From a virus, in the IMG/VR virus record IMGVR_UViG_3300008265_000001: a DNA stretch of 64,000 nucleotides; one strand, 5' to 3'. Below are positions 18,375 to 61,898 of this stretch, in pieces. The notes below the pieces were generated by a model. The model worked only from the letters and a program-made list of their open reading frames with translations, was not told the origin of the DNA and did not search any database. Within the stretch, counting starts at the first letter, position 1. Every line of letters begins with the position of its first letter. Both the position numbers and the translations under genes were made by a program.

Positions 18375-21049
18375 TCTCAAATCTCTCCAGTAGCGCCGAA
18401 AATCCTCTTAGAGCCGTTGTAGGTACTTACACGCTAAATCAGGAGCTTGACCAGCCTCCATCTCTTTCTGCCGTCATTTACGTGGTGACTCTAGATGAAG
18501 TGCCAACATTAGGAAGTGATTTGACATTTGGCAACTACAATTTCTATCTGACCAACTACAGCTACAAAGAATCACCTCAAGTACAAAAAGTCGGTAATGT
18601 GTCGGTTCGGTACGAAGTTTCGCTCAGCTACTCTCATGTCAGCAAGCTTTTTACTGAAAAAGGAATTAATACTGCTAAGTTTGTTTTGGCTTATGGGCGT
18701 TCGGCTCAAATTATCGGTGAGCAGTTCTACCGCTTCCCTTTGATTTCGCTTCTGTCTCAGGTAGCGGCTTTCACTGGTATCAGATGTCCAATTTCAGGGC
18801 TAAGTGGTTTTGTTAATCTTCCATACCGACCAGCTAACACAGATTTTTTCACACTCAGTTCTTTTCTGGCTGAGCGAAGCGTCCTTGATGCCAAAGTAGC
18901 TGTTTACTCACAGTCTGGTATCGATTACGTTGCACTTGGTTCTGGGCGGTCAATCACGGCTGCGCCTCTTACTGAAATTACTCTGACAGATAACGAGACA
19001 CCTTGTTACAAAAATACGCTGCTCAATTGGAATGGCGGCACTAACTATGGACTGCAAAATACTTACGTCCAAGTTACCGATGATGAGTACGTGCTTTACG
19101 AAGGCGACCCCAATCCTCACTTACCTCCAATAGAAGTTGGTGATGGCAGCTTAGTTCCTCGCGACCTCAGTATATTTGTTGACAATGGTGGTTTGAGTAA
19201 GCAATTCAAGATTACTTTGTACAAATATGGACAACCTAACTCGGAAATATCTGGCACTTATGGTTTTAGTCATTCGGCTCTCGAATTGGTTAGCAACCCA
19301 CTAGCACCAGTCAATCTAGACTATTCAATTCTTGATAGGATGCAAAGTAATCCTTCCCAACAAGCTAATGCACTTAAAGGGCTGCTGGGAAACCTTGTCA
19401 ATCAAGCTATGGGGATGGTGGGTACTAATATTTTTGCGCGTCCTATTGTGTGGCGAGTCACTAGCATCAAGCAAACTAATTTTATTTATCAGCCTCTCGA
19501 ACTCGATATCAAGCCACAGGTTCTTGATGCTTTTGGCAATTATGTAAAAATTGAAGTTCCTGCACAATTTGACTACCTCCTTAACTGTAATTCACAAGTA
19601 TTGATAGCTGAGCAGACTGAAGGATGGACTATTAAGCGTTTTGCTAATGAAGATGCAGCTAACTGGACTCAAGGCAGTATTCAGGCATATATCAATCTTG
19701 TTTATCTTTTGCAAATTGGTAATCAGATTGCAAATGATATTGTAAGCCTTCAATATTACTATCTTGAGGTATACAAAGCCAAATGCAAACTTGAGAGCTT
19801 CTTGTATCGCAAAATTCCTATCACTGAGCGCGTAGATTATTTCATAGAGCCATTCAGTAAATACTACAAAGATGGCGACAAAGTTGATTGGAACGTCGAG
19901 TATATCCCTAAAGCTCAATTGCCTAACTCACCTAGCACTCAAGACCCTGTAGCCGTACTTTTCCCTAGTCCTGACTGGGTTCCTAATTTGATGATAGTCA
20001 GTAAGTCGAGATATTCAATTTCTGCTGGTGTCAGTGGGAATCCTGAGTATAATGACCAAGCTGCTTCGCTTTGGGGCAAGAATCCTATTTACTTGACCAC
20101 TGGTGAGGAAGTTTACGAACATACTCGCTACATGATTCGACCAAGCAAGACAACTAAGCAGAATATTGACAAGATTTACGAAACTTTCAATGACCTCAAT
20201 GGTTTGTTAGGCTCGATTAATCAGAACGAGTTGTATAGTGGAACTTACTACCGTCCTTTCAGTTACATGAATGTACCTGATGATGCAGTAATTGGTCAGG
20301 GTGTACCGCCGAGTATTGATATCAACAAAGTCATTCCGACACAACAGAAAAAAGACCCTTCGGCTGTTCCAGCGTATTCGACTGCAAGTAATGATGCCAG
20401 CTTCAAAGACGACTCCTACTCAATCTACGGAACAATCCGCACAGTTGCCGATGCCAGCTTCAAAAGCAACATACAAAGTTCAAGCTTTAGTACAGCTTTG
20501 GGGCGACCTCCTAGCGCTACAGTACGCAAACCAGTTAATCAACTCAACCCTGTTCAAGACAAAAATGGACTTAAAGATTCGCTGACCTATCTAACCTCTA
20601 ATGTGCGTGACCGCAACATATTGAGCGATGTGACAATTACTGGGGCGCAGAATATACAGGAGGCAATTAAAGGCGCTACATTCAAGCTGCACAAAGATGT
20701 GTTTGATGGAGCAAGTCTAAGTACGTCATTTACATGGACACAAAACGCAATCAAGCCAAATAGTGTGTTTCAGTACTTTGGTCAAAAATGGGCAGCTAAG
20801 TCAAGTACGTTCACTACGCAGATTATCAACGGAGGTGCGCTTAATCAGCCCGTCAGCGTCACGTTCGGTGAAGTAGTGCCAGTCACACTCACATCAGTTA
20901 GCACGACCGCTACAGCGCTAAATAGCATCAAGGGTGGGTTGGTGACGACTGTTAACGTGAGTGGGCTTCCTAACCACATCGGAAATAATTTAGATAATGT
21001 TCCCCTAAACTTCGGAAGATGGGTTAGTAGCGGTGGGTCTGGACTTTAG
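18365..21049 (+). CDS. large tail tip / central fibre protein candidate (by position)
   Basis: 894-aa ORF overlapping the upstream gene by 10 nt. Confidence 0.5.
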   Translation: MSLVSNLSSSAENPLRAVVGTYTLNQELDQPPSLSAVIYVVTLDEVPTLGSDLTFGNYNFYLTNYSYKESPQVQKVGNVSVRYEVSLSYSHVSKLFTEKGINTAKFVLAYGRSAQIIGEQFYRFPLISLLSQVAAFTGIRCPISGLSGFVNLPYRPANTDFFTLSSFLAERSVLDAKVAVYSQSGIDYVALGSGRSITAAPLTEITLTDNETPCYKNTLLNWNGGTNYGLQNTYVQVTDDEYVLYEGDPNPHLPPIEVGDGSLVPRDLSIFVDNGGLSKQFKITLYKYGQPNSEISGTYGFSHSALELVSNPLAPVNLDYSILDRMQSNPSQQANALKGLLGNLVNQAMGMVGTNIFARPIVWRVTSIKQTNFIYQPLELDIKPQVLDAFGNYVKIEVPAQFDYLLNCNSQVLIAEQTEGWTIKRFANEDAANWTQGSIQAYINLVYLLQIGNQIANDIVSLQYYYLEVYKAKCKLESFLYRKIPITERVDYFIEPFSKYYKDGDKVDWNVEYIPKAQLPNSPSTQDPVAVLFPSPDWVPNLMIVSKSRYSISAGVSGNPEYNDQAASLWGKNPIYLTTGEEVYEHTRYMIRPSKTTKQNIDKIYETFNDLNGLLGSINQNELYSGTYYRPFSYMNVPDDAVIGQGVPPSIDINKVIPTQQKKDPSAVPAYSTASNDASFKDDSYSIYGTIRTVADASFKSNIQSSSFSTALGRPPSATVRKPVNQLNPVQDKNGLKDSLTYLTSNVRDRNILSDVTITGAQNIQEAIKGATFKLHKDVFDGASLSTSFTWTQNAIKPNSVFQYFGQKWAAKSSTFTTQIINGGALNQPVSVTFGEVVPVTLTSVSTTATALNSIKGGLVTTVNVSGLPNHIGNNLDNVPLNFGRWVSSGGSGL

Positions 21050-21322
21050 ATAGTCTTGATACCATCGTTCTACGCTTGGAGGAAGTTCTCCAATAGAACG
21101 TTGATTTAGATACCAAGATTTTAGGCATTTACTATACCAGTAGTGAATTTCATTAGAGGATTCCATATCTACACCATCCAACTCTTTAAATACTGCAATC
21201 CAGATGATGTTCCCACTGTGCAGGTAGCGATGCCAAATTGCAATTTTGTTTACTTGAAAGCGCTCGTAAGCTCCGCAGTTTTCGAGAGTGCATTCTGATA
21301 GTACGGGATAGTATCTAGTCAT
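21005..21322 (-). CDS. hypothetical protein with a C-terminal RWYQDYLKSR motif
   Basis: 105-aa ORF, last gene of a minus-strand operon. Its 3' end overlaps the convergent 894-aa gene by 45 nt. Confidence 0.4.
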   Translation of the reverse strand: MTRYYPVLSECTLENCGAYERFQVNKIAIWHRYLHSGNIIWIAVFKELDGVDMESSNEIHYWYSKCLKSWYLNQRSIGELPPSVERWYQDYLKSRPTATNPSSEV

Positions 21323-21331
21323 GTTAGTTTC

Positions 21332-21688
21332 TTACACGGCTTTGTTTTGATAATTGGTAAGTTCAGCCTCATTGAAAAGCACCGAACCTCTTATAGAGCC
21401 TTTTACAGCACTTTCAGGGATACGGAAAGCATTCAAGATTCTGCTGTCCAAGTGGTCTTGATACCATCTGAGCATAGTTGCTTTTTGCTCTGGTGTTGGG
21501 GGTGGGGTAATCACATCATCGATGATAATCATGTCGCAGGAGTAGCCTGACTGCGTTTGTCTTTTCTTCAGTTCGGTTAGTACTTTGGACTTGGTGGTTG
21601 TCCAGTCCATCACTTGAGGATTAGCTCGTTTAGTGATGTCACCTGATGCCAAGATGGTGTCGAATAGTGGGTTGTCAGTTTGTGTCAT
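21332..21688 (-). CDS. hypothetical protein with a Walker-B-like MIIIDDV and an RWYQDHLDSR motif
   Basis: 118-aa ORF overlapping the upstream gene by 14 nt. Confidence 0.45.
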   Translation of the reverse strand: MTQTDNPLFDTILASGDITKRANPQVMDWTTTKSKVLTELKKRQTQSGYSCDMIIIDDVITPPPTPEQKATMLRWYQDHLDSRILNAFRIPESAVKGSIRGSVLFNEAELTNYQNKAV

Positions 21689-22388
21689 AGTTTTCTTCTA
21701 GTAAATATACTTTCTTAGGCTCAATCTCTAACGGCAAATCTTTAAAGAAATACTTTACCCTAGAATTTTTGTATTGTACATACTCCCAACCATTAGTTAT
21801 AAGTAAATCTTCAATATCTTTTGTTTTCTTGTTGATATTAGGTAGTTTTTGTTTTAGTTGGGGTATAGTAAATTTTTTGTTTATATTGTAGGCAGTTTCA
21901 ATAATAGCTGTGTCTAATAAAACATTGTCTACATCTTCGACCTCATCTTCGTTCCAGTGGTATGCCTGAATAATAGATTCCGAAAGCATTTTAAAATCTA
22001 TTTCAGCCAACCCAAAACGTTTAAGCAGCTTTCGTCTTAATGAGTTGTAAGCTTTTGTAATTTCGGAAGAACTACTAGAGCCATTATGAAAAATTCTCCA
22101 CACCTTATCTTTCTTCTTTTCATCCACTACTTCTTCAACTGTAAAACCCTCTAAAATTTCAGGGTCTAAGTTGAAACACATGGAAAGGGCTGCGGTTGTG
22201 ACTCTTGGGGTATTTAGTAAAGTGTCTAGTTTTTTATTTATCTGCTGTTGCATACTATATGAATATGCAAATAATTCATTAGCCGCTTGTCTTGTAGCTT
22301 CTGAAGTTTGTGTTGACTCCTGAAGTATTGTGACCAACATATCTACGTCTGGCGGTCTTCTGGTTAATGTGGTTGCTATTCTAGACAT
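21675..22388 (-). CDS. hypothetical protein, putative DNA-binding (C-terminal LLxxGW..Q.YKN..V.Y motif); paralog of 59872..60516
   Basis: 237-aa ORF, first gene downstream of the WGTACW array. N-terminal PPxxxM....E(S/N)....S(E/Q) and C-terminal motifs are shared with the 214-aa protein. Confidence 0.5.
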   Translation of the reverse strand: MSRIATTLTRRPPDVDMLVTILQESTQTSEATRQAANELFAYSYSMQQQINKKLDTLLNTPRVTTAALSMCFNLDPEILEGFTVEEVVDEKKKDKVWRIFHNGSSSSSEITKAYNSLRRKLLKRFGLAEIDFKMLSESIIQAYHWNEDEVEDVDNVLLDTAIIETAYNINKKFTIPQLKQKLPNINKKTKDIEDLLITNGWEYVQYKNSRVKYFFKDLPLEIEPKKVYLLEENYDTN

Positions 22389-22401
22389 GAGCTTTTTTAA
22401 T

Positions 22402-22583
22402 GTACTAAAGTACTATAGCACATCTTTACATTAGTACTTTTACACAGTTTTTAAAAATGTACTGATTCTTTGAACGATATTCAAGGTTTGTAAGCATATA
22501 ACGTTAGTACACAATTAGTACATATAAAACTGTACTAGAGTTGAAAATGTTTGTAGACATCGGTTTGGGAGATTACCTAGTAC
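22402..22583. repeat. array of eight WGTACW palindromic hexamers in a 314-nt intergenic leader
   Basis: GTAC at 22402, 22410, 22434, 22459, 22507, 22518, 22532 and 22580, each in an (A/T)GTAC(A/T) context. About 0.7 occurrences would be expected by chance. Confidence 0.8.
22412..22420 (-). promoter_or_regulatory. extended -10 (TGCTATAGT on the minus strand) for the 237-aa gene
   Basis: 23 nt upstream of the ATG at 22388. Flanked and overlapped by two WGTACW sites. Same 9-mer as upstream of 26154..27002. Confidence 0.45.
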
Positions 22584-22624
22584 ATCCCTATACATTATTA
22601 TTTTTATTGAACATCCCCTCTTCT

Positions 22625-22642
22625 AGCCCTACGGCGACTGAG
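22625..22642. repeat. 18-nt motif AGCCCTACGGCGACTGAG (copy 1 of 2)
   Basis: 17/18 identical to 60808..60825. Both copies lie just downstream of a minus-strand stop codon and upstream of a repeat-rich leader. Confidence 0.8.
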
Positions 22643-22646
22643 TAAC

Positions 22647-22675
22647 AAAAAACCCCCAGTCATTACAACCAGAGG
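22647..22675 (-). terminator. rho-independent terminator after the acidic-protein gene
   Basis: Minus strand reads CCUCUGGU-UGUAAUG-ACUGGGGG (8-bp stem including G.U pairs) followed by UUUUUU. Confidence 0.5.
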
Positions 22676-22702
22676 TCAAGCATCGAGCATACAAACTAGC
22701 GA

Positions 22703-23008
22703 CTAGGCTATAACATAACCGTTTTCATCATATTCAGTGTCATCGCTTTCCTCGTCGTCGTCTTCATAGTCCTCATCTTCGCCATAAAGCGACTCAAACA
22801 AGTCCTCAACATACAATTCGACAAGCTCTTCATCATATTCAGTATCAGGAGGCGTAAGCTCGATACCGTAAGTATAGGTAGCACCTTCTTCAGAGACAAT
22901 AGTACGTGTAACTGTAATTGACGTATCGGACGATGTAACTTCAGCATTTTCGTATTCTTCACGTAATGCTTCGGCTACTTCGACAAATTTCGAGATTGGG
23001 TAGGTCAT
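22703..23008 (-). CDS. very acidic 101-aa protein (34 D/E, 3 K/R); DNA-mimic / anti-restriction candidate
   Basis: Composition counted directly. C-terminus GEDEDYEDDDEESDDTEYDENGY. Monocistronic unit between a promoter and a terminator. Start moved to the ATG at 23008 (MTYPISK). Confidence 0.55.
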   Translation of the reverse strand: MTYPISKFVEVAEALREEYENAEVTSSDTSITVTRTIVSEEGATYTYGIELTPPDTEYDEELVELYVEDLFESLYGEDEDYEDDDEESDDTEYDENGYVIA

Positions 23009-23067: not shown

Positions 23068-23559
23068 ATGCAGAAAAGAAGGTATACTAGAAACATACTT
23101 AAAATTTCCACTATGCAACACTTCGCTAACTTTGGCACTATTCGTAAAGCCAACAAACTAAAAAAGAAAACTTGGGAAAAAGACACTACTGGTGATGCTA
23201 ATGCTACTAGATGGGATGTCAATGAAGCCCGAAGTATGAGAAATGAAGAAAATCCAGACCCATTGGCTAGCTGGCAACGACCTTACAATAACGGGTTAAC
23301 TGCAAGAAATAAAATAGCTGAACGCAAATTAAACCCTAGAAAAATAAGTGCTAGTGACGACCTTTCCAGACCAAATTTTGACCAATTTACAGATGTTAGA
23401 CCTAATGAAGACTATGCAATTAATGCAGAGTATTTAGGTTTTCGCAAAGACCCCTTTAAGGGATATGGAGGGATGATGGAGGAGCCTGTGGATTATAAGA
23501 AGAAGATTATGGGTCGTGGAATTAACCGATTTGATATGCGTGGAGGAGTAGAGCCATAA
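23068..23559 (+). CDS. basic hypothetical protein, N-terminus MQKRR...MQHFANF (ANF family)
   Basis: 163-aa ORF. Its 5' end carries the 25-nt element GCTGTCGCTCGTATGCAGAAAAGAAG. Confidence 0.55.
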   Translation: MQKRRYTRNILKISTMQHFANFGTIRKANKLKKKTWEKDTTGDANATRWDVNEARSMRNEENPDPLASWQRPYNNGLTARNKIAERKLNPRKISASDDLSRPNFDQFTDVRPNEDYAINAEYLGFRKDPFKGYGGMMEEPVDYKKKIMGRGINRFDMRGGVEP

Positions 23560-25341: not shown

Positions 25342-26103
25342 ATGGCTGGATATAACGTTAAAATTGCCCCGAAGGGAGCTTATGGAACAAAACCAGACCC
25401 TAATAAATGGTCTGGAGGCATATACATCAATGATAAGTATAATGCTTTCCCTGAGTTGCCTAGAGAAGTAGGGCAATCAAGAAAGTCAGTGTTAAAAGGT
25501 AAGGGAGGCTCTGTTCATCTGCTTCCAGACTCTTCTAGTTTGACTTTACCTAGAGGTGGTATTCATATCCCAGAATTAGATGAGTTTGGCAATTTGCTCA
25601 CTTCTAATTTTCCTAGCTATGGCACTATGGCTCATGCTGCTAGAGGTTCAGCGCTTATAGGTGGAAAAACATCCAAACTAGACATCCCTGACGATATTCA
25701 AAAAAGTTTACTTCAATTACCAGTTGCAGGTAAAAAGATTGGCTCTACAAGAATGCCAGCAATGGTCGCTATGAAGACTAATAGTAAAATTGCAGATTCT
25801 TTAGGTTTCCCGACTGACCACGTTTATACAGGTCGTCTCAATGTATCTCCAGATGTCAATACAGCAATTATGCAAAGCGTTGCTACAAGACAAAATGCTA
25901 AGACTGGAAAAGTAAGTATTGAAGAACCTAGTATTTGGTATGCAATGCAGAATGCAGGACTAAGACCAGAAGATTTCAAAATTAAGGGTCGCTCTTTAGG
26001 TAGACTTAGAAATAATCGAGACGTAAGTATCCCAGAAGAAATCAACGTAGGATTTAAGCGTGAATTTACACACATGGCAAACTTCAGTAAGACTCGCAGC
26101 TAG
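25342..26103 (+). CDS. hypothetical protein, C-terminus ...THMANFSKTRS
   Basis: 253-aa ORF. Confidence 0.5.
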   Translation: MAGYNVKIAPKGAYGTKPDPNKWSGGIYINDKYNAFPELPREVGQSRKSVLKGKGGSVHLLPDSSSLTLPRGGIHIPELDEFGNLLTSNFPSYGTMAHAARGSALIGGKTSKLDIPDDIQKSLLQLPVAGKKIGSTRMPAMVAMKTNSKIADSLGFPTDHVYTGRLNVSPDVNTAIMQSVATRQNAKTGKVSIEEPSIWYAMQNAGLRPEDFKIKGRSLGRLRNNRDVSIPEEINVGFKREFTHMANFSKTRS

Positions 26104-26106
26104 CGC

Positions 26107-26146
26107 AAGCTGACGCTCGGTGCAGAAAAGAAGTGAGCGTCAGCTT
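26107..26146. repeat. 12-bp perfect inverted repeat (AAGCTGACGCTC / GAGCGTCAGCTT) whose loop carries TGCAGAAAAGAA
   Basis: Read directly between convergent genes. Carries copy 2 of the 25-nt element. No T-run follows. Confidence 0.75.
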
Positions 26147-32014: not shown

Positions 32015-32876
32015 TAATTTCTTCCTCAGTAGCAAAACGCCACCCTAACCATTCAGGTTCACAACTTTTAAATCTTCTTTGAGCGGTAATGAGAGCTATT
32101 TTTTGAAATCGGGCAGCTTGAGAAATTGATATATAATATTTATCGTCTATTATTACAGGTTTGCTATTAGGAGAAGCTGCCCTCATGTTAGTTTTAGCTT
32201 CTTCTGTAACAATTTTCCCTTTGGCTGACGCACTCATTTTTGCTCTGGTTTCAGGTGAGAATACCCTTCCTTTACCCGCAGCGCTTATTTTGTCTCTAGT
32301 TTCTTTACTACAATTTTTACTATTAATACTAATTTTAGCTTTAGCCTCTTCAGTATGACGATAACCAAGACCATTAGTATTACCTTTACAAGAAATACTT
32401 CTTTTGGCTCTGGTTTCAGGTGATTGTACCTTACCTTTCAGTGAGTTACTTATTTTTTCACGTGTTTGAATATCACGTTCTTTCCCTTTTTTAGCAGCCG
32501 CAATCTTAGCTTTGGTTTCTTGTGTAATAACCTTACCTTTGTTAAAAGCACTAATTTTTGCCTTATGCTCTTCTGTAAGAGCTAAGCCTTTACATCCCCT
32601 TCCACCAATTTTCATATTGTAGATATCTTCACGGCTTATAAACTCTTTATTGACCATCTCTTCTTCAGCTTCATAAGCATCATCGGCGCAGCTAAATTCA
32701 GCTAACGTAGCTCTAGTAAAATTTTCTCTGCCATGTTTATTGATTGCCGCACGTAGACCGTCACCACTACCTAAATATTTCCTAGATTTTGCAGTATTGG
32801 CAACTTTATGTACCCCAACATAAATCTTGCCATTCAACAAATTCGTAGTTTTATACAAAATCCAAGTGTCAGCCAT
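31980..32876 (-). CDS. GIY-YIG homing endonuclease with about 8 NUMOD3 repeats (copy 1)
   Basis: MADTWILYKTTN..NGKIYVGVH...R...H; repeats of x(T/S)(E/P)E(T/H)(K/R)AKIS...KGK. Start moved to the ATG at 32876. The 3' end overlaps 27104..32014 by 35 nt. Confidence 0.8.
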   Translation of the reverse strand: MADTWILYKTTNLLNGKIYVGVHKVANTAKSRKYLGSGDGLRAAINKHGRENFTRATLAEFSCADDAYEAEEEMVNKEFISREDIYNMKIGGRGCKGLALTEEHKAKISAFNKGKVITQETKAKIAAAKKGKERDIQTREKISNSLKGKVQSPETRAKRSISCKGNTNGLGYRHTEEAKAKISINSKNCSKETRDKISAAGKGRVFSPETRAKMSASAKGKIVTEEAKTNMRAASPNSKPVIIDDKYYISISQAARFQKIALITAQRRFKSCEPEWLGWRFATEEEITSFLEGGASEE

Positions 32877-32893
32877 TGCAAATATCCCATATC

Positions 32894-32918
32894 CATGTAT
32901 AATAAATACAGTATAACA
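32894..32918. promoter_or_regulatory. 25-nt conserved core CATGTATAATAAATACAGTATAACA holding back-to-back -10 boxes (TATAAT towards RHH, TGTTATACT towards GIY-YIG)
   Basis: Identical 25-mer, reverse-complemented, at 37405..37429. Confidence 0.55.
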
Positions 32919-32932
32919 CACGTGAGTACAAA

Positions 32933-33085
32933 ATGCGTCCTGATAAAAGCAAAAGATTAAATGCGAAATTGTCCGTAAAAAGACATGAAAAGTTGATGAA
33001 ATATGCCGAGTCGCAAGATAAGGATATGACATCAGCTATAGAGTGCTGGATTGATAGTCTTCCAGAAGTCCAAGTGTTAAACTAA
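32933..33085 (+). CDS. 50-aa ribbon-helix-helix (CopG/Arc-like) protein, copy 1; not in the supplied track
   Basis: MRPDKSKRLNAKLSVKRHEKLMKYAESQDKDMTSAIECWIDSLPEVQVLN has a beta-helix-helix pattern. A paralog of the same length lies at 37235..37387. Confidence 0.55.
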   Translation: MRPDKSKRLNAKLSVKRHEKLMKYAESQDKDMTSAIECWIDSLPEVQVLN

Positions 33086-37235: not shown

Positions 37236-37387
37236 TATTTTGCTGTTGTGTCAGGTAAAGAGTCAATCCAATCCTCAAAAAGACAGGTCATCTTTTTTTG
37301 GCGGGAGTCAGCATAGTTCTTGAATTTATCCATGCGCTTCTCAGATATAACCGCATTAAATCTTTTGCTTTTATCGATATTGCTCAT
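37235..37387 (-). CDS. 50-aa ribbon-helix-helix protein, copy 2; not in the supplied track
   Basis: MSNIDKSKRFNAVISEKRMDKFKNYADSRQKKMTCLFEDWIDSLPDTTAK. Shares DKSKR(L/F)NA and (C/D)WIDSLP with copy 1, plus a 17-nt identical stretch GATAAAAGCAAAAGATT. Confidence 0.55.
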   Translation of the reverse strand: MSNIDKSKRFNAVISEKRMDKFKNYADSRQKKMTCLFEDWIDSLPDTTAK

Positions 37388-37404
37388 TGTTTATGTTTTT
37401 TATA

Positions 37405-37429
37405 TGTTATACTGTATTTATTATACATG
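37405..37429. promoter_or_regulatory. second copy of the 25-nt back-to-back promoter core (TGTTATACTGTATTTATTATACATG)
   Basis: Exact reverse complement of 32894..32918. Confidence 0.55.
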
Positions 37430-37447
37430 AAAGGATGGGTATGTGCA

Positions 37448-38224
37448 ATGGCTGAGACTTGGATATTATATCGAACTACGAATTTGTTGAATGGCAAGAT
37501 TTATGTTGGGGTACATAAAGTATCTGATACCAAGCACTCAAGACGTTATTTAGGTAGCGGAACAATTCTAAAGCCAGCTATTGAAAAATACGGCAGGAAA
37601 AATTTTACTAGGACTACATTGGCAGAATTTAATAATTGTAAAGATGCCTATAAAGCTGAAGCAGAAATGGTTAATGAGGAGTTCCTTAAACGCACTGATA
37701 TTTACAATGTAAAACTGGGAGGGGAGGGTAGTGTAGGCTTTAAACCTACCGAGCAGACTAAAATAAAGATGAGTATTGCAAACAGAGGGAGAGTTGCTAA
37801 CGAAGAACAAAAGCTAAATTACAGCAGAGGTCAACTTGGTAATAAAAAATGGTTAGGTAAACACCATACGGAGGAGTCTAAAGCGAAAATCAGTGCTGCT
37901 AACAAGGGACATACACGCACTGTAGGTAAAATTTTAACTCCAGAAAATAAAGCTAAACTAATAGCTTCAAATATAGGTAGGGTTAAATCCAAAGAAGAGA
38001 TTGAAAAACTCAGGGTAGCTAATAGCGGAGCAAATAACTCTGGAAGTATAGCAGTTGTGATAAATGGGGTATATTATCCTACAAAAAAATTTGCAGCCGA
38101 AGGGGAAAAAGTAGTTCCAGCTACTGTATCGGACAGAATTAAAAGTCCTAAGTCGAAATGGGATGGTTGGAGACTGGCTACTGATGAAGAAAAATCTATC
38201 TATGGTTCTAGTACGCTAGAATAG
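37448..38224 (+). CDS. GIY-YIG homing endonuclease with NUMOD3 repeats (copy 2)
   Basis: MAETWILYRTTN..NGKIYVGVH. A 48-nt stretch (37474..37521) is identical to copy 1 (32803..32850, minus strand). Start moved to the ATG at 37448. Confidence 0.8.
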   Translation: MAETWILYRTTNLLNGKIYVGVHKVSDTKHSRRYLGSGTILKPAIEKYGRKNFTRTTLAEFNNCKDAYKAEAEMVNEEFLKRTDIYNVKLGGEGSVGFKPTEQTKIKMSIANRGRVANEEQKLNYSRGQLGNKKWLGKHHTEESKAKISAANKGHTRTVGKILTPENKAKLIASNIGRVKSKEEIEKLRVANSGANNSGSIAVVINGVYYPTKKFAAEGEKVVPATVSDRIKSPKSKWDGWRLATDEEKSIYGSSTLE

Positions 38225-51919: not shown

Positions 51920-52076
51920 TTTAAAAATCCCATTAGCTGCACCGCCTTATAATGAAGGTACTGTAGTAGGTTTTGAAGTTGTTGATGGAAGATTTATTAG
52001 AGTTAACAGTAAACAAGAAGCTCTAGATTTAATTATTGCCCTGCAAACTATAGCAGATAATTGGAATGCTAACTAA
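51906..52076 (+). CDS. small hypothetical protein
   Basis: 56 aa from the internal ATG; overlaps both neighbours by 11-14 nt. Confidence 0.35.
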   Translation: MLGTSLKIPLAAPPYNEGTVVGFEVVDGRFIRVNSKQEALDLIIALQTIADNWNAN

Positions 52077-54132
52077 TAACGGGATAACTGCTAATGGTAT
52101 TAGATTTCTTGGTGGTGGGGCAGCCTCTACTTCTATAGATTCTCTCAATAGAGTTGGTCGGTCTATGGCTAATAGAGTAGCTTTCAGTAAAACAACCTCA
52201 TTTCCTGTAGGCTATTACGAAAATGCTTTAAAGCGACCATTATCTGTAGGTGAAATTGGTAGCACTTTTAGAACTTTTGGTGCAGCTACAACCTCAAGCT
52301 CTCTTTTTGGTATAGGTTCTGTAGTAGCGACACTTAATCTTGCTGGATTAATTACAAGCACAGGATTTTTAATACGAGGTGTTGTAAAATCTGGTTCTGC
52401 TGCTGGTATTGCTACTTTTGAACCATTAACTTTAGACGGAAAAGGTATTATTGGAGCCACTTTAAATATCGGCTTTAAACCTTCAGCATTTGATATTGCC
52501 CAAGAAGTTTGGGGGGCAATTGCTTCACTTAACAATGTAATTGGAACAATGGGAGAAGTTCTGAACAGTGCGACAGGTGGAGGCGGTGGAGGCGGTGGAG
52601 GCGGTGGAGCTAGTGCATCTAGTATTGCTACTGCTGTTTGGGATAGATTATTATCTGGGCATCAAATATCTGGAAGTGCAGGTAAAGCTTTATCTGATGC
52701 TGGTGGTGGTAGTTCTCCTAGTACTATTGCTGGTGCAGTTAGAACCGAACTTTCTACAGAATTAGGGAGAATTGATGCAACTGTTTCTAGTCGCTTAGCT
52801 TCTGCTGGATACACAGCACCTGATAACGCAACAATATCTACCATAAACACTAAATTAGGGACACCTTCTGTTTCCCTTAGTGCTGACATTGCAACCAGAG
52901 CATCTCAAACTAGTGTTAATTCCATACCAGTCACAACATTACTTTCTTCTGACCTTAGACTTAATAATCTCGATGCTGCAATAAGCAGCCGATTACCCAC
53001 CGCAAGTTATTCTGCACCTATATCTGCCTCTACTATTTCATCTCAAGTAAGGACGGAGCTTTCCACAGAGTTGGCACGAATTGATGTAGCTATCTCAAGC
53101 AGAAATGCAACTACTCCGCCTACAGTTTCTCAAATTAGAACAGAACTTGATACCAACTCTACTAAGTTAGATGTTGCAGTCAGCACAAGACTAGCTGGAG
53201 TTACCTATACAATACCTCCAACAGCTTCTCAAGTTGCCACGCAAGTTCGTACCGAATTAACAACTGAACTTGGAAGAATTGACGCAGCAATTTCCACTCG
53301 CTTATCTTCTGCTGGATATACTTCTCCAGATAATACAACAATTGAAACTATAAATACAAAAATAGGTACTCCATCTATTTCTTTATCTGATGACATAGCT
53401 ACTAGAGCATCACAAACAACTTTAGATGCAATACCAACTAATACGTTGTTATCGAATGATTCTAGACTTAATAATCTTGATGCAACTATATCTAGCAGAT
53501 TGGCAACAACAGGATACTCTGCCCCAGTTTCTGCTGGTACATTAGCTTCCCAAGTAAGAACTGAACTTTCTGTAGAACTTTCAAGAATAGATGTTGCAAC
53601 TTCAAGTCGATTAGCAAGTGTTTCTTATACAATCCCCCCTACCGTAGCCGCTATTCGTTCGGAAATTGACACTAATTCAACAAAACTAGATGTAGCAATA
53701 AGCACACGCTTAGCTTTTGGGGCTTATAGCACACCTCCTACAGCTTCAGTTATTGCTGGTCAAGTCCGAACTGAACTTGCTACAGAATTATCTAGGATTG
53801 ATGTTCCAACTTCAACTAGACTTGCATCAGCTAATTACACAATACCAAATAATTCTGGTATTGCATCTATTCTTGAAGATACCAATGAATTACAAAATAA
53901 TCAAAATCAATGGATAACTGCGACAGGTTTTGCTACACCAACTAATGTAAGCAATGCTCAAACAGCTATAATAAGTGAGATTAATACTAACGAAACTAAA
54001 TTAGATAGTATTAAGGCTAAAACAGACATTTTAGTTAATACAGATTTATCAAGTATAGAAGCTGATTTAGTTATTATTAATGAAGGTGTTAAAAAAGCTA
54101 GTCTACTTGTACCACACTCAGAGGATTTATAA
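52066..54132 (+). CDS. repetitive tail fibre protein (poly-Gly hinge plus tandemly duplicated 169/173-aa unit)
   Basis: 688 aa, with G11 and the motif VRTEL..EL.RID...S.RLA...Y..P recurring 5 times. Confidence 0.65.
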   Translation: MLTNNGITANGIRFLGGGAASTSIDSLNRVGRSMANRVAFSKTTSFPVGYYENALKRPLSVGEIGSTFRTFGAATTSSSLFGIGSVVATLNLAGLITSTGFLIRGVVKSGSAAGIATFEPLTLDGKGIIGATLNIGFKPSAFDIAQEVWGAIASLNNVIGTMGEVLNSATGGGGGGGGGGGASASSIATAVWDRLLSGHQISGSAGKALSDAGGGSSPSTIAGAVRTELSTELGRIDATVSSRLASAGYTAPDNATISTINTKLGTPSVSLSADIATRASQTSVNSIPVTTLLSSDLRLNNLDAAISSRLPTASYSAPISASTISSQVRTELSTELARIDVAISSRNATTPPTVSQIRTELDTNSTKLDVAVSTRLAGVTYTIPPTASQVATQVRTELTTELGRIDAAISTRLSSAGYTSPDNTTIETINTKIGTPSISLSDDIATRASQTTLDAIPTNTLLSNDSRLNNLDATISSRLATTGYSAPVSAGTLASQVRTELSVELSRIDVATSSRLASVSYTIPPTVAAIRSEIDTNSTKLDVAISTRLAFGAYSTPPTASVIAGQVRTELATELSRIDVPTSTRLASANYTIPNNSGIASILEDTNELQNNQNQWITATGFATPTNVSNAQTAIISEINTNETKLDSIKAKTDILVNTDLSSIEADLVIINEGVKKASLLVPHSEDL
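52576..52608 (+). repeat. (GGTGGAGGC)x3 + GGTGGA encoding Gly11
   Basis: Read directly; a 9-nt in-frame tandem repeat. Confidence 0.9.
52738..53763 (+). repeat. intragenic tandem duplication: 507-nt unit (52738..53244) followed by a 519-nt unit (53245..53763)
   Basis: Units A1(103 aa)+B1(66 aa) and A2(103 aa)+B2(70 aa) align residue by residue. Confidence 0.85.
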
Positions 54133-59594: not shown

Positions 59595-59875
59595 CTAAGC
59601 AATTGCCTCAGAGCTTCTTCATGTTTTGGGGCGAAGTAAATAGATTCTCCGTAAGTGGAGTCTTCTGGCTCAACATCAGCAAAAATATAGAAAAGATAAA
59701 GTAAATTCATGTAAGGCTCCCCAATATTAGTCTGGCAAATCCTTTGAGGAATAATTTGGCGTACAACACCTTCACTGATGAGGTATACCTTATTTTCGAT
59801 TTTGAATACAGATTGGTGGTTATCGAAGCGGAGTGTGGGATGAGAACGGAAGTTCGTGAGTACTTTGTTGTTCAT
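59591..59875 (-). CDS. hypothetical protein
   Basis: 94-aa ORF; 4-nt overlaps at both ends. Confidence 0.45.
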   Translation of the reverse strand: MNNKVLTNFRSHPTLRFDNHQSVFKIENKVYLISEGVVRQIIPQRICQTNIGEPYMNLLYLFYIFADVEPEDSTYGESIYFAPKHEEALRQLLS

Positions 59876-60516
59876 GGTTTTAGGTAAAATACTGCTCCAT
59901 TTTTATACGTTTGTTTAGACCAACCTAAGCGGAGTAGTGAATCAGCAACAACTTTCTTGTCAAGTCCTTGGGTATCTTTAAGAATCTCAGACACTGTAAT
60001 TCGCGCTTTGCGAGTACCTTCAAGCAACTTAGTGATAACTCGGTCAACATACTCAACTGTTTCCACTGAGCCTTGATGTTTTGCAAGTTTTAGAGCTTTC
60101 TTCAAAGCGGTAAGAAGAAATTTATACTCAAAGTTGTATCGATAGTTGAAATTCTCACTCAACTTGCTGCTCAGTATGTCAATTGGGCTAAGGTCAAACC
60201 CATAGGCTCCTTTTTCTGCTTCTACACCATTGAAAATGATTTTTTGGGTATCTTTATCAATATCAAATCCACGAAGGTACTCAGGGTTGCTACGAAGGAA
60301 ATTAGCAAGACCGTCAACTTGTGCAATTTGAGCAGTGTCGAGGCTGTACTTATTTAGTGTGTTTGCTTGGTCGGCAAGAGCGATTGCTACCATTTTCCAA
60401 AGATTTTCTTGACTCTCTCTTGGACTGTTTTCGACCATGCAAGAAATTTTATCCATAGGTATCGGGGGCTTGAGTAGGCGTACTAATTCGATTTCCGTAA
60501 TCTTGGTTATATTCAT
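59872..60516 (-). CDS. hypothetical protein, putative DNA-binding; paralog of 21675..22388
   Basis: Start moved to MNITKI (60516) because an extended -10 lies at 60542..60550. The C-terminus LLRLGWSKQTYKNGAVFYLKP aligns with LLITNGWEYVQYKNSRVKYFFK. Confidence 0.5.
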   Translation of the reverse strand: MNITKITEIELVRLLKPPIPMDKISCMVENSPRESQENLWKMVAIALADQANTLNKYSLDTAQIAQVDGLANFLRSNPEYLRGFDIDKDTQKIIFNGVEAEKGAYGFDLSPIDILSSKLSENFNYRYNFEYKFLLTALKKALKLAKHQGSVETVEYVDRVITKLLEGTRKARITVSEILKDTQGLDKKVVADSLLRLGWSKQTYKNGAVFYLKP

Positions 60517-60541
60517 TAATGAGTTTTTGTTTCTTTTTATT

Positions 60542-60550
60542 AATATAACA
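60542..60550 (-). promoter_or_regulatory. extended -10 (TGTTATATT on the minus strand)
   Basis: 25 nt upstream of the ATG at 60516, abutted by a TTTGTGGTTTGTG repeat. Confidence 0.4.
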
Positions 60551-60695
60551 CAAACCACAAAGAAGGCTATATCTATCTAAAGGAGTACTCAATATCAAAC
60601 CCTAAAACCACAACAAAACACCAACTTAACTTTCTTTGGCGAAGCAGACCTCACAAAAAGCACAACCTCACCAAAATTAAATCACAAACCACAAA
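60549..60695. repeat. 13-nt direct repeat CACAAACCACAAA (60549..60561 and 60683..60695) bracketing a C/A-only-rich, strand-asymmetric tract
   Basis: Read directly. CACAAC/CACAAA variants also occur at 60608-60625 and 60661-60675. Confidence 0.7.
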
Positions 60696-60807
60696 TCCGT
60701 TTTTTAGACTGTATTGTAGAATCCTTACACAGATTGAATTTCGAGCTTACTAATTTTTGTGTTTAATTCGCTAGGAATACTCCTACTACTTCTACTAAAA
60801 TCTTCAC

Positions 60808-60825
60808 AGCCCTGCGGCGACTGAG
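60808..60825. repeat. 18-nt motif AGCCCTGCGGCGACTGAG (copy 2 of 2)
   Basis: See 22625..22642. Confidence 0.8.
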
Positions 60826-60837
60826 CATCTACTAGCT

Positions 60838-61828: not shown

Positions 61829-61861
61829 GTTAATAACCTCTAAAATTATTTAATGTGACTC

Positions 61862-61898
61862 GCAGCTAGCGTCAGCTGACGCTAGCTGCAGAAAAGAA
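61862..61898. repeat. 28-nt perfect palindrome GCAGCTAGCGTCAGCTGACGCTAGCTGC overlapping copy 3 of the GCTGACGCT...TGCAGAAAAGAA element
   Basis: Read directly in the 86-nt gap between minus-strand genes. Confidence 0.8.

Follow-up and report, generated by a model that had tools for sequence, protein, structure and literature searches.

What is the function of a dense cluster of GTAC tetranucleotides in front of a small viral gene? The cluster lies in a stretch of 64,000 nucleotides (nt) from the virus record IMGVR_UViG_3300008265_000001, hereafter called the window. There, the intergenic region 22389-22702 separates two minus-strand genes, an open reading frame (ORF) of 237 amino acids (aa) at 21675-22388 and a small acidic ORF at 22703-23008/23053. 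We hold with moderate confidence, from sequence comparison and a structure model, that the array is an autoregulatory operator: eight sites for a phage-encoded DNA-binding protein, most probably the adjacent 237-aa protein with its predicted winged helix. The first-pass annotation had inferred an operator array with this protein as the candidate binder, and that reading is now the best supported, by a phylogenetic footprint, overlap with a predicted promoter, the predicted winged helix and the linkage between gene and array.

The cluster itself stands far above expectation. GTAC begins at positions 22402, 22410, 22434, 22459, 22507, 22518, 22532 and 22580. These eight copies fall within 182 nt (22402-22583), in agreement with the initial count of eight in about 180 nt, while the rest of the window has 190 copies in 63.8 kb, or 0.54 expected per 182 nt. 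The Poisson probability of at least eight copies in 182 nt is 1.1e-7, which becomes about 4e-5 after correction for all 182-nt windows. When the local 240 nt were dinucleotide-shuffled 5,000 times with composition kept, the mean was 1.56 copies and the maximum 7; eight copies never occurred. Every 200-nt segment elsewhere in the 64 kb has at most 4 copies, leaving the array as the unique maximum. Globally, the 198 copies in 64 kb are close to the 193 +/- 12 found in shuffles. Therefore, the anomaly is one of local density: the enrichment is real, and GTAC is not avoided genome-wide.

All eight sites match WGTACW, and were originally described as 6-bp palindromes or half-palindromes. The conserved unit is nevertheless not the palindrome. 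TAGTAC is present at seven of the eight sites and TAGTACA, on either strand, at five, which identifies the repeat unit, at the sequence level, as an asymmetric heptamer, TAGTACA/T, used in both orientations. Numbered from the distal to the proximal end relative to the 237-aa gene, heptamer 1 (TAGTACA; 22578-22584, plus strand) marks the distal end of the array, with its GTAC 195 nt before the ATG. Heptamers 2 (TAGTACA; 22531-22537, minus strand; 147 nt before the ATG) and 3 (TAGTACA; 22516-22522, plus strand; 133 nt) form an inverted pair with centres 14 nt apart. Heptamer 4 (TAGTACA, or TGTACTA in gene orientation; 22505-22511, plus strand; 122 nt) lies 11 nt from heptamer 3, and heptamer 5 (CAGTACA; 22458-22464, minus strand) has its GTAC 74 nt before the ATG. 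Heptamers 6 (TAGTACT, or AGTACTA in gene orientation; 22432-22438, plus strand), 7 (TAGTACT; 22409-22415, minus strand) and 8 (TAGTACA; 22401-22407, minus strand; 17 nt) complete the array; 7 and 8 are the sole pair 8 nt apart (AGTACTTTAGTACA). From distal to proximal, the centre spacings are 48, 14, 11, 48, 25, 24 and 8 nt. An apparent 8-nt periodicity of GTAC-like tetramers at 22402-22445 was rejected, as it is not kept in the relatives L004, L010 and L019 introduced below. No second cluster of the heptamer word occurs in the 64-kb window.

The positions of the heptamers are conserved among relatives. The 237-aa protein has very few close homologues, and the DNA around them was recovered for comparison. 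Besides the window, the comparison covered lineages L013, L003, L004, L010 and L019, whose proteins are 99%, 88%, 66%, 53% and 41% identical to the 237-aa protein, respectively. In the window, L013 and L003, the GTAC-to-ATG distances are 195, 147, 133, 122, 74, 49, 25 and 17 nt. The corresponding distances are 197, 149, 135, 124, 77, 51, 26 and 18 nt in L004; 183, 167, 135, 124, 111, 59, 48, 25 and 16 nt in L010; and 194, 152, 137, 126, 75, 57 and 15 nt in L019. Overall, the heptamer-to-ATG distances are nearly constant, while the spacer DNA has diverged. The TAGTAC core of heptamer 8 is invariant across the five lineages of the clade, as are the TGTACTA block of heptamer 4 and the TAGTAC block of heptamer 2; the position of heptamer 5 is kept in L003, L013, L004 (77 nt) and L019 (75 nt). 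In the five-lineage alignment, identity to the window reached 0.88 at the GTAC cores and 0.80 for the flanking two bases, compared with 0.48 at the remaining positions (p=2e-4, permutation test). In L019, TAGTACA is perfect at seven of seven sites. This pattern of aligned bases is a phylogenetic footprint, indicating that the heptamers are sites under selection.

The same data bear on whether the cluster could be a product of chance, of low-complexity DNA or of a structured RNA leader. The region is indeed A+T-rich, with 34% G+C. However, each lineage has 7-9 GTAC where shuffling gives 1.2-2.2, the observed count was never reached in 5,000 composition-matched shuffles for any of the six lineages, and the positions are conserved. 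The RNA of the array folds no better than shuffled sequence (z=-0.17), and Rfam contains no known RNA family matching the window. We give this explanation next to no weight. The occurrence of heptamers in both orientations fits recognition of double-stranded DNA.

Where do the heptamers lie relative to transcription? An extended -10 element, TGCTATAGT (TGnTATAGT), can be read on the minus strand at 22412-22420. It is kept as TGnTATA(G/C)T in the window, L003, L004, L010 and L019 and is the other invariant island besides the heptamers. Transcription is predicted from the sequence to start near 22405, about 7 nt past the -10, which would give a leader of about 17 nt. Three heptamers overlap this predicted core promoter: heptamer 6 lies in the -35 region (GTAC 22434-22437), heptamer 7 overlaps the 3' end of the -10 hexamer (GTAC 22410-22413) and heptamer 8 sits on the predicted start (GTAC 22402-22405). 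The remaining five are located about 55 to 178 nt upstream of that start. Since most heptamers lie upstream of the predicted start, the array belongs mainly to promoter and upstream DNA rather than to the leader, in which it had first been placed somewhat imprecisely.

This geometry raises the question of whether a host repressor could be the binder. The published consensus of the cyanobacterial LexA box is AGTACWNWTGTACT, with half-site AGTACA (PMC3091678). TAGTACA contains this half-site, all eight sites read (A/T)GTAC(A/T), and the pair at 22401-22414 (AGTACTTTAGTACA) has the 8-nt spacing of LexA and overlaps both the -10 and the start. If the GTAC sites were LexA boxes, host LexA would repress the operon until DNA damage or another LexA-linked signal induced it. 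To compare the sites quantitatively, we used a weight matrix built from 48 published LexA sites (median 16.0 bits, lower quartile 14.1). The equivalent box in L003 scores 14.0 bits. By contrast, 22401-22414 scores 9.5 bits and ranks 11th in the window, below ten unrelated places. The 8-nt spacing is present in the window, L003, L013 and L004, but it is 9 nt in L010 and L011, and L019 and PA-SR01 have no such pair. For six of the eight conserved sites, no second half lies at a distance of 8 nt. In addition, sister modules in the same phages, the window included, carry unrelated words, which one host factor cannot explain. LexA structures are absent from the fold matches of the 237-aa model. LexA control is therefore very unlikely, and the case carries a caution: apparent host LexA half-sites need not be LexA sites. 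NtcA (GTA-N8-TAC) and the HLR1 repeats of RpaB were also rejected in a by-eye check of the sequence, as their spacings do not fit.

Is the adjacent protein a plausible binder? According to the structure model, the N-terminal part of the 237-aa protein is helical, residues 82-101 form a beta-hairpin and the C-terminus, at about residues 155-218, folds as a winged helix. The protein has no match in Pfam, PHROGs or PADLOC, its neighbours and 23 family members gave no consistent one, and a PDB sequence-profile search with the 237-aa protein returned nothing meaningful. A profile search of 1.8 billion representatives found 36 relatives of 200-240 aa (50%-identity clusters); scanning JGI metagenomes with the family alignment found no loci. 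An AlphaFold model from a 23-sequence alignment reached a predicted local distance difference test score (pLDDT) of 78.6. Its C-terminal 63-73 residues superpose on winged-helix DNA-binding domains, among them PerR (4i7h_A; probability 0.99, 2.3 A), Rpc34 (probability 0.96, 2.7 A) and a viral Z-binding domain (probability 1.00, 2.5 A), with further winged-helix matches to BigR, SmtB and HlyU. Matches over the whole chain of the model were not significant. We thus regard the protein as an uncharacterised family with a predicted C-terminal winged helix, and at this level of prediction the superpositions bear out the winged-helix-like C-terminus noticed at first sight.

Related phages also bear on the link between the protein and the array. 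At the nucleotide level the array region is about 75% identical to two Pseudanabaena phages, PA-SR01 (137 kb) and Pam2 (143 kb), and the window is part of a Pseudanabaena-type cyanophage related to both. PA-SR01 has an equivalent minus-strand module at this locus, while in Pam2 the module is absent and a plus-strand gene takes its place. The gene and its array always occur as a unit, and the repeated word appears to vary with the protein. The PA-SR01 copy at the same locus, with 33% protein identity, carries the word TTGTACA(A) (p=0.006), and L020 (36%) carries TGTATAT(A) (p=0.01); both words stand in the same place and between the same flanks as the array of the window. The words TGTATAA in L021 (34%) and AACATTGTAA in L024 (29%) are borderline, and exact-word counting found no significant word in L022, L023, L017 and L018 (22-32%). 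L021 and L022 share the flanks of the window, that is, the terminator, an 18-nt motif and an A+T-rich box, which places a different pair of protein and word at the same locus. For Pam2_82, which belongs to a second paralogue class, CTTACAAAGATA occurs 3-4 times upstream; counting of 6- and 7-mers is too short for CTTACAAAGATA, and the best words there have p=0.07-0.15. The annotated start of the PA-SR01 protein QIW88480 (L001 4767-4803) is probably 12 codons too far upstream: the family alignment begins at the Met at L001 4767, and that start adds two GTAC sites to the promoter region.

Each genome has 2-3 family members, located at 46 and 83 kb in PA-SR01 and at 77 and 122 kb, with a weak third, in Pam2. 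The window itself contains a second module, module B, on the minus strand at 59872-60837. It consists of a 214-aa family member (59872-60516; hmmsearch E=8.5e-12, hhalign probability 96.3%) and a 321-nt upstream region with the same layout as the first module, module A, including an extended -10 (TGTGTTATATT) and the 18-nt motif at 60825-60808. Module B, the best internal control for the array, has seven TTGTG in one orientation (p ~0.01) and one GTAC, in contrast to eight GTAC and one TTGTG in module A. Paralogues in one genome thus have mutually exclusive words. This cannot be explained by a common host factor, and the parsimonious interpretation is that each protein binds its adjacent array. 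The wing of the predicted fold points in the same direction: all lineages with a GTAC core, PA-SR01a among them, have the wing sequence (S/N)RVKYF, and the other lineages differ. The PA-SR01a protein is closest to P0007 (59% identity), yet the wing of P0007 is SRMRYF and its word TGTATAA. Across these sequences, it is suggestive that the wing motif tracks the word.

The footprint demonstrates selection on the sites and does not by itself identify what binds them. The binder could instead be another phage protein whose gene lies beyond the window, or a host factor distinct from LexA, with the 237-aa protein just a regulated product. The genome has about 140 kb, of which the window shows only 64 kb, and relatives encode a sigma factor and helix-turn-helix (HTH) regulators. 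Against this, paralogous modules of a single genome have different words, and the word appears to change with the adjacent protein; a trans-acting factor would need to co-vary from afar. The modules of L009-L012 contain the adjacent family gene only, and this minimal form counts in favour of the 237-aa protein as the binder. The lack of further word clusters in the window or in PA-SR01 likewise counts for an operator of the adjacent protein: a search of the whole PA-SR01 genome found no second cluster of its word. A minor TTGTAC cluster at 2.8-3.1 kb of PA-SR01, next to a gene for a 'DNA-binding domain protein', consists of three scattered sites and was judged to be chance. We consider binding by another factor unlikely.

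Pattern scans for the array core gave little beyond the family. In genomes there were 18 matches, approximately the chance level and none of them cyanobacterial; in viruses there were 7 matches, only 1 of which was a true relative. Two GTAC clusters were seen in unrelated phages without a family gene. One, L031 8351-8447, is from a high-G+C phage and consists of a contiguous GTACTAG/GTACTAGGCTA tandem repeat with 12 GTAC in about 100 nt. The other, L034 4597-4717, is from an A+T-rich phage and holds 8 GTAC in about 120 nt.

How might the operator work? We suggest that the host-type extended -10 promoter TGCTATAGT would fire early. Accumulating 237-aa protein would then occupy the three heptamers over the -35 region, the -10 and the start, and the five upstream heptamers may aid through cooperative or oligomeric assembly (avidity). 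The operon, its variable cargo included, would in this way be shut off by negative autoregulation. Gene and array would form a self-contained cassette bounded by the 18-nt motif and the terminator, and paralogous or orthologous cassettes may have diverged to private words, avoiding cross-regulation. We infer the promoter, the start, the winged-helix fold, the identity of the binder and both the sign and the timing of regulation.

Several points weigh against the autoregulatory operator. The pTM, or predicted template modelling score, of the structure model is only 0.44, and the winged-helix matches are local, with weak library-wide E-values (0.03-0.3). Typical winged-helix dimers read dyads of 14-20 bp, and isolated 7-bp sites with irregular spacing and mixed orientation are unusual for them. 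Simple occlusion would not require heptamers that lie up to 178 nt ahead of the start. The promoter and start are predictions; a consensus promoter scan did not list the array promoter, whose -35 is poor. The repeated words of several distant members (L022, L023, L017, L018 and PA-SR01b) are borderline or not significant. Finally, the co-variation between residues and words offers few independent contrasts and is confounded by phylogeny.

Could the arrays do more than regulate transcription? The winged-helix domain of the family also forms the C-terminus of the GIY-YIG/T5orf172 nucleases P0037 and P0029 (E ~1e-20 to 1e-22), and the P0029 domain is 57% identical to that of P0008 over 54 aa. The non-catalytic end of GIY-YIG homing enzymes is the DNA-targeting module. 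Fusion of winged-helix domains with near-identical recognition segments to such nucleases in related phages means that the arrays could be targets in phage competition or homing. The modules would then be autonomous, exchangeable cassettes bounded by the 18-nt motif and equipped with a private recognition code. A nuclease could cut the array of a rival, with the resident protein shielding its own; alternatively, the arrays of such cassettes could be auxiliary start sites of replication or recombination. We regard this extended role as unlikely. GIY-YIG/T5orf172 nuclease genes often lie directly after the family gene, as in L019 (940-1431), L020 (2428-2943), Pam2 (Pam2_184) and PA-SR01 (QIW88435). 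In the nuclease adjoining the family gene of L019, the recognition residues are not those of the family protein.

The elements that delimit the cassettes are also conserved. At the distal edge of the array lies an A+T-rich box, GTTCAATAAAAATAATAATGTATAGGG (22586-22612, minus strand), which occurs once in the window. Versions of it, (C/G)AATAATA..AATAnTATAG(G), are found about 200-230 nt upstream of most family genes, including those with other words. Next to it is the 18-nt motif CTCAGTCGCCGTAGGGCT (22625-22642, minus strand), a module boundary element kept in L003, L004, L010, L021, L022 and PA-SR01. An intrinsic-terminator-like hairpin with a T-run (22644-22677, minus strand; hairpin 22677-22651) ends the upstream gene of the acidic protein and is kept in PA-SR01, Pam2, L010, L011, L013, L021 and L022. 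The terminator and the 18-nt motif had been reported to precede the array on the minus strand, and both were found there, at 22677-22651 and 22642-22625. Exactly two copies of the 18-nt motif CTCAGTCGCCGYAGGGCT exist in the window, at 22625-22642 and 60808-60825, both on the minus strand. Each copy forms the distal edge of one family module, and the motif is also present upstream of Pam2_82. The motif may mark the boundary of a cassette or a junction formed by recombination. A diverged copy at 78070 of the Pam2 record lies at the point of an insertion/deletion difference from the window.

An array of sites next to a winged-helix protein is also reminiscent of a replication origin, an option raised by the first-pass annotation together with iterons. 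The heptamers would be the iterons, the adjacent protein the initiator and the A+T-rich box the unwinding element. Such an array in cis with a winged-helix protein of private specificity resembles Rep proteins and iteron incompatibility groups, the conserved A+T-rich box adjoins the array at 22586-22612, and there are weak fold matches to origin recognition complex (ORC), viral replication initiator and primase-type proteins (probability 0.1-0.4). However, iterons are in-phase direct repeats of about 17-22 bp, while the sites here are 7 bp long, irregularly spaced and in both orientations. The genomes carry 2-3 family modules, compared with typically one origin-initiator pair per replicon. The module sits within a tail-gene cluster, far from the replication genes, and is absent from the tail locus of Pam2, whose replication genes are the same. 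The cumulative GC skew, noisy in this genome, has no inflection near 22 kb, and the protein shows no sequence similarity to any Rep family. The origin option was thus not borne out, and we consider it quite unlikely.

The other option raised initially was a role in restriction or methylation, in which the cluster would act on a GTAC-specific enzyme as a decoy or would serve to sense methylation. In its favour, the sites are short palindromes, GTAC is a type II target (RsaI, Csp6I), and the pac site of phage P1 is a precedent for a cluster of methylatable hexamers. The tetranucleotide statistics point elsewhere. GTAC is mildly depleted, with observed/expected ratios of 0.74 in the window and 0.78 in PA-SR01. 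GATC, GGCC and CCGG do not occur at all in the window, where about 179, 90 and 59 are expected, and they are also absent from PA-SR01 and Pam2. Mild depletion beside complete absence makes GTAC unlike a restriction target in this lineage. In addition, selection reaches the asymmetric flanks (TA-GTAC-A), although an enzyme with a 4-bp target would not read them, and homologous modules carry words without GTAC. No GTAC-specific methyltransferase or nuclease is present in the annotations of two phage genomes, PA-SR01 and Pam2. A role in restriction or methylation did not hold up and appears highly improbable. The missing GATC, GGCC and CCGG, together with CATG at 0.57-0.62 of expectation, amount to an extreme avoidance of restriction or Dam/Dcm-type sites.

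The neighbours of the array deserve a brief description. The 237-aa gene (21675-22388, minus strand), which encodes the candidate binder, is followed in the operon by two cargo genes of 118 and 105 aa (21005-21688, minus strand). Cargo varies by lineage, and in L009-L012 the family gene alone follows the array. The two cargo proteins (21332-21688 and 21005-21322, minus strand) have a common motif near the C-terminus, RWYQDHLDSR / RWYQDYLKSR, and no family match. Upstream of the array, the small acidic protein (22703-23008, minus strand) has a D/E-rich tail and is kept in PA-SR01 and Pam2; its Pam2 counterpart, Pam2_38, is annotated as 'putative anti-CRISPR'. The acidic protein looks like a DNA mimic, and no family match backs any function. 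An Aca-type regulator was considered and rejected: there is no Pfam HTH or PADLOC match, and the acidic gene labelled 'putative anti-CRISPR' in Pam2 lies upstream, beyond the terminator.

Three other features of the window were noted. TGCAGAAAAGAA occurs exactly on the plus strand at 690-701, 23069-23080, 26121-26132 and 61887-61898 and with one mismatch at 149, 34488 and 63411, a total of 7 where 0.9 would be expected. In many cases a G+C-rich palindrome precedes it (for example 26091-26132 and 61857-61898, which are 90% alike) and TATACT follows, just before plus-strand genes. It probably acts as a phage-specific signal, either a promoter or a regulatory element. A sigma factor gene, Pam2_08, is present in Pam2. 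A 4.4-kb segment in the structural region is enclosed by inverted repeats of about 270 nt (32693-32965 and 37352-37631), in which one arm of 195 nt is 76% identical, one of 25 nt is perfect and one of 24 nt is 96% identical. The segment could be an inverted duplication or an invertible segment. At 52735-53846, six diverged copies of an 86-nt coding repeat lie within a 688-aa ORF (52066-54132), making its product internally repetitive and possibly fibre-like.

What follows from these observations? A testable role, binding to TAGTACA heptamers, is proposed for an unannotated family with 36 clusters and 2-3 copies per genome in Pseudanabaena phages. A recurring cyanophage cassette emerges, in the order terminator, 18-nt boundary motif, A+T-rich box, private word array, extended -10 promoter, regulator and variable cargo. 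If the proposed binding is true, the cassettes would provide naturally orthogonal repressor-operator pairs (TAGTACA, TTGTACA, TGTATAT and TTGTG) that work with cyanobacterial RNA polymerase, and such pairs would be usable as genetic parts in cyanobacteria and engineered cyanophages. If the cassettes are also exchangeable, they would represent a previously undescribed family of orthogonal protein-operator pairs in cyanophages. Our search of the searchable literature found no description of this protein-array system.

How does the array compare with known systems? The half-site of the cyanobacterial LexA box (PMC3091678) equals the heptamer, and one 8-nt-spaced pair lies over the promoter; the dyad of 9.5 bits against a median of 16, the lack of conserved spacing, the mostly unpaired sites and the other words of the sister modules set the array apart. 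Rep-iteron origins likewise combine a winged-helix protein with its own adjacent sites, an A+T-rich segment and lineage-specific specificity, but here the sites are short, unphased and in two orientations, several modules coexist, the module is dispensable in Pam2 and a skew signal is absent. T4-type mobile cassettes (promoter-early stem-loop elements flanking variable genes) also have conserved boundaries and variable cargo. Here the boundaries of the promoter-led cassette are a terminator stem-loop plus the 18-nt motif, and the insertion/deletion difference between the window and Pam2 ends at this motif. To our knowledge, these elements have not been reported with their own specific DNA-binding protein and operator array.

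Arrays of very short words are known from plasmids. The omega repressor of inc18 plasmids binds WATCACW heptads (7 bp) arrayed as direct or inverted copies; for ParG of TP228, the arrays consist of ACTC tetramer boxes. As in the putative operator of the window, numerous very short words, oriented either way, precede the operon that encodes the regulator. They differ in that omega and ParG are ribbon-helix-helix proteins with contiguous or evenly spaced heptads, whereas here a winged helix is predicted and the sites are 8-48 nt apart. Autoregulated phage and plasmid repressors, such as Aca regulators of anti-CRISPR operons, phage 186 CI and the Mu repressor, place, as is proposed here, a small DNA-binding protein beside a multi-site promoter, with some of the sites over the -35, the -10 and the start and a specificity that diverges among relatives. 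In contrast to those repressors, the family here is unannotated and matches no HTH family model, the candidate regulator is first rather than last in its operon, and one or two dyads are replaced by eight 7-bp sites with irregular yet conserved spacing over 180 bp. Overall, systems in which a DNA-binding protein has its cognate sites arrayed on its own promoter are well known. New here are the protein family, the operator grammar of many 7-bp sites at conserved irregular spacing and the cassette architecture with private words in paralogues.

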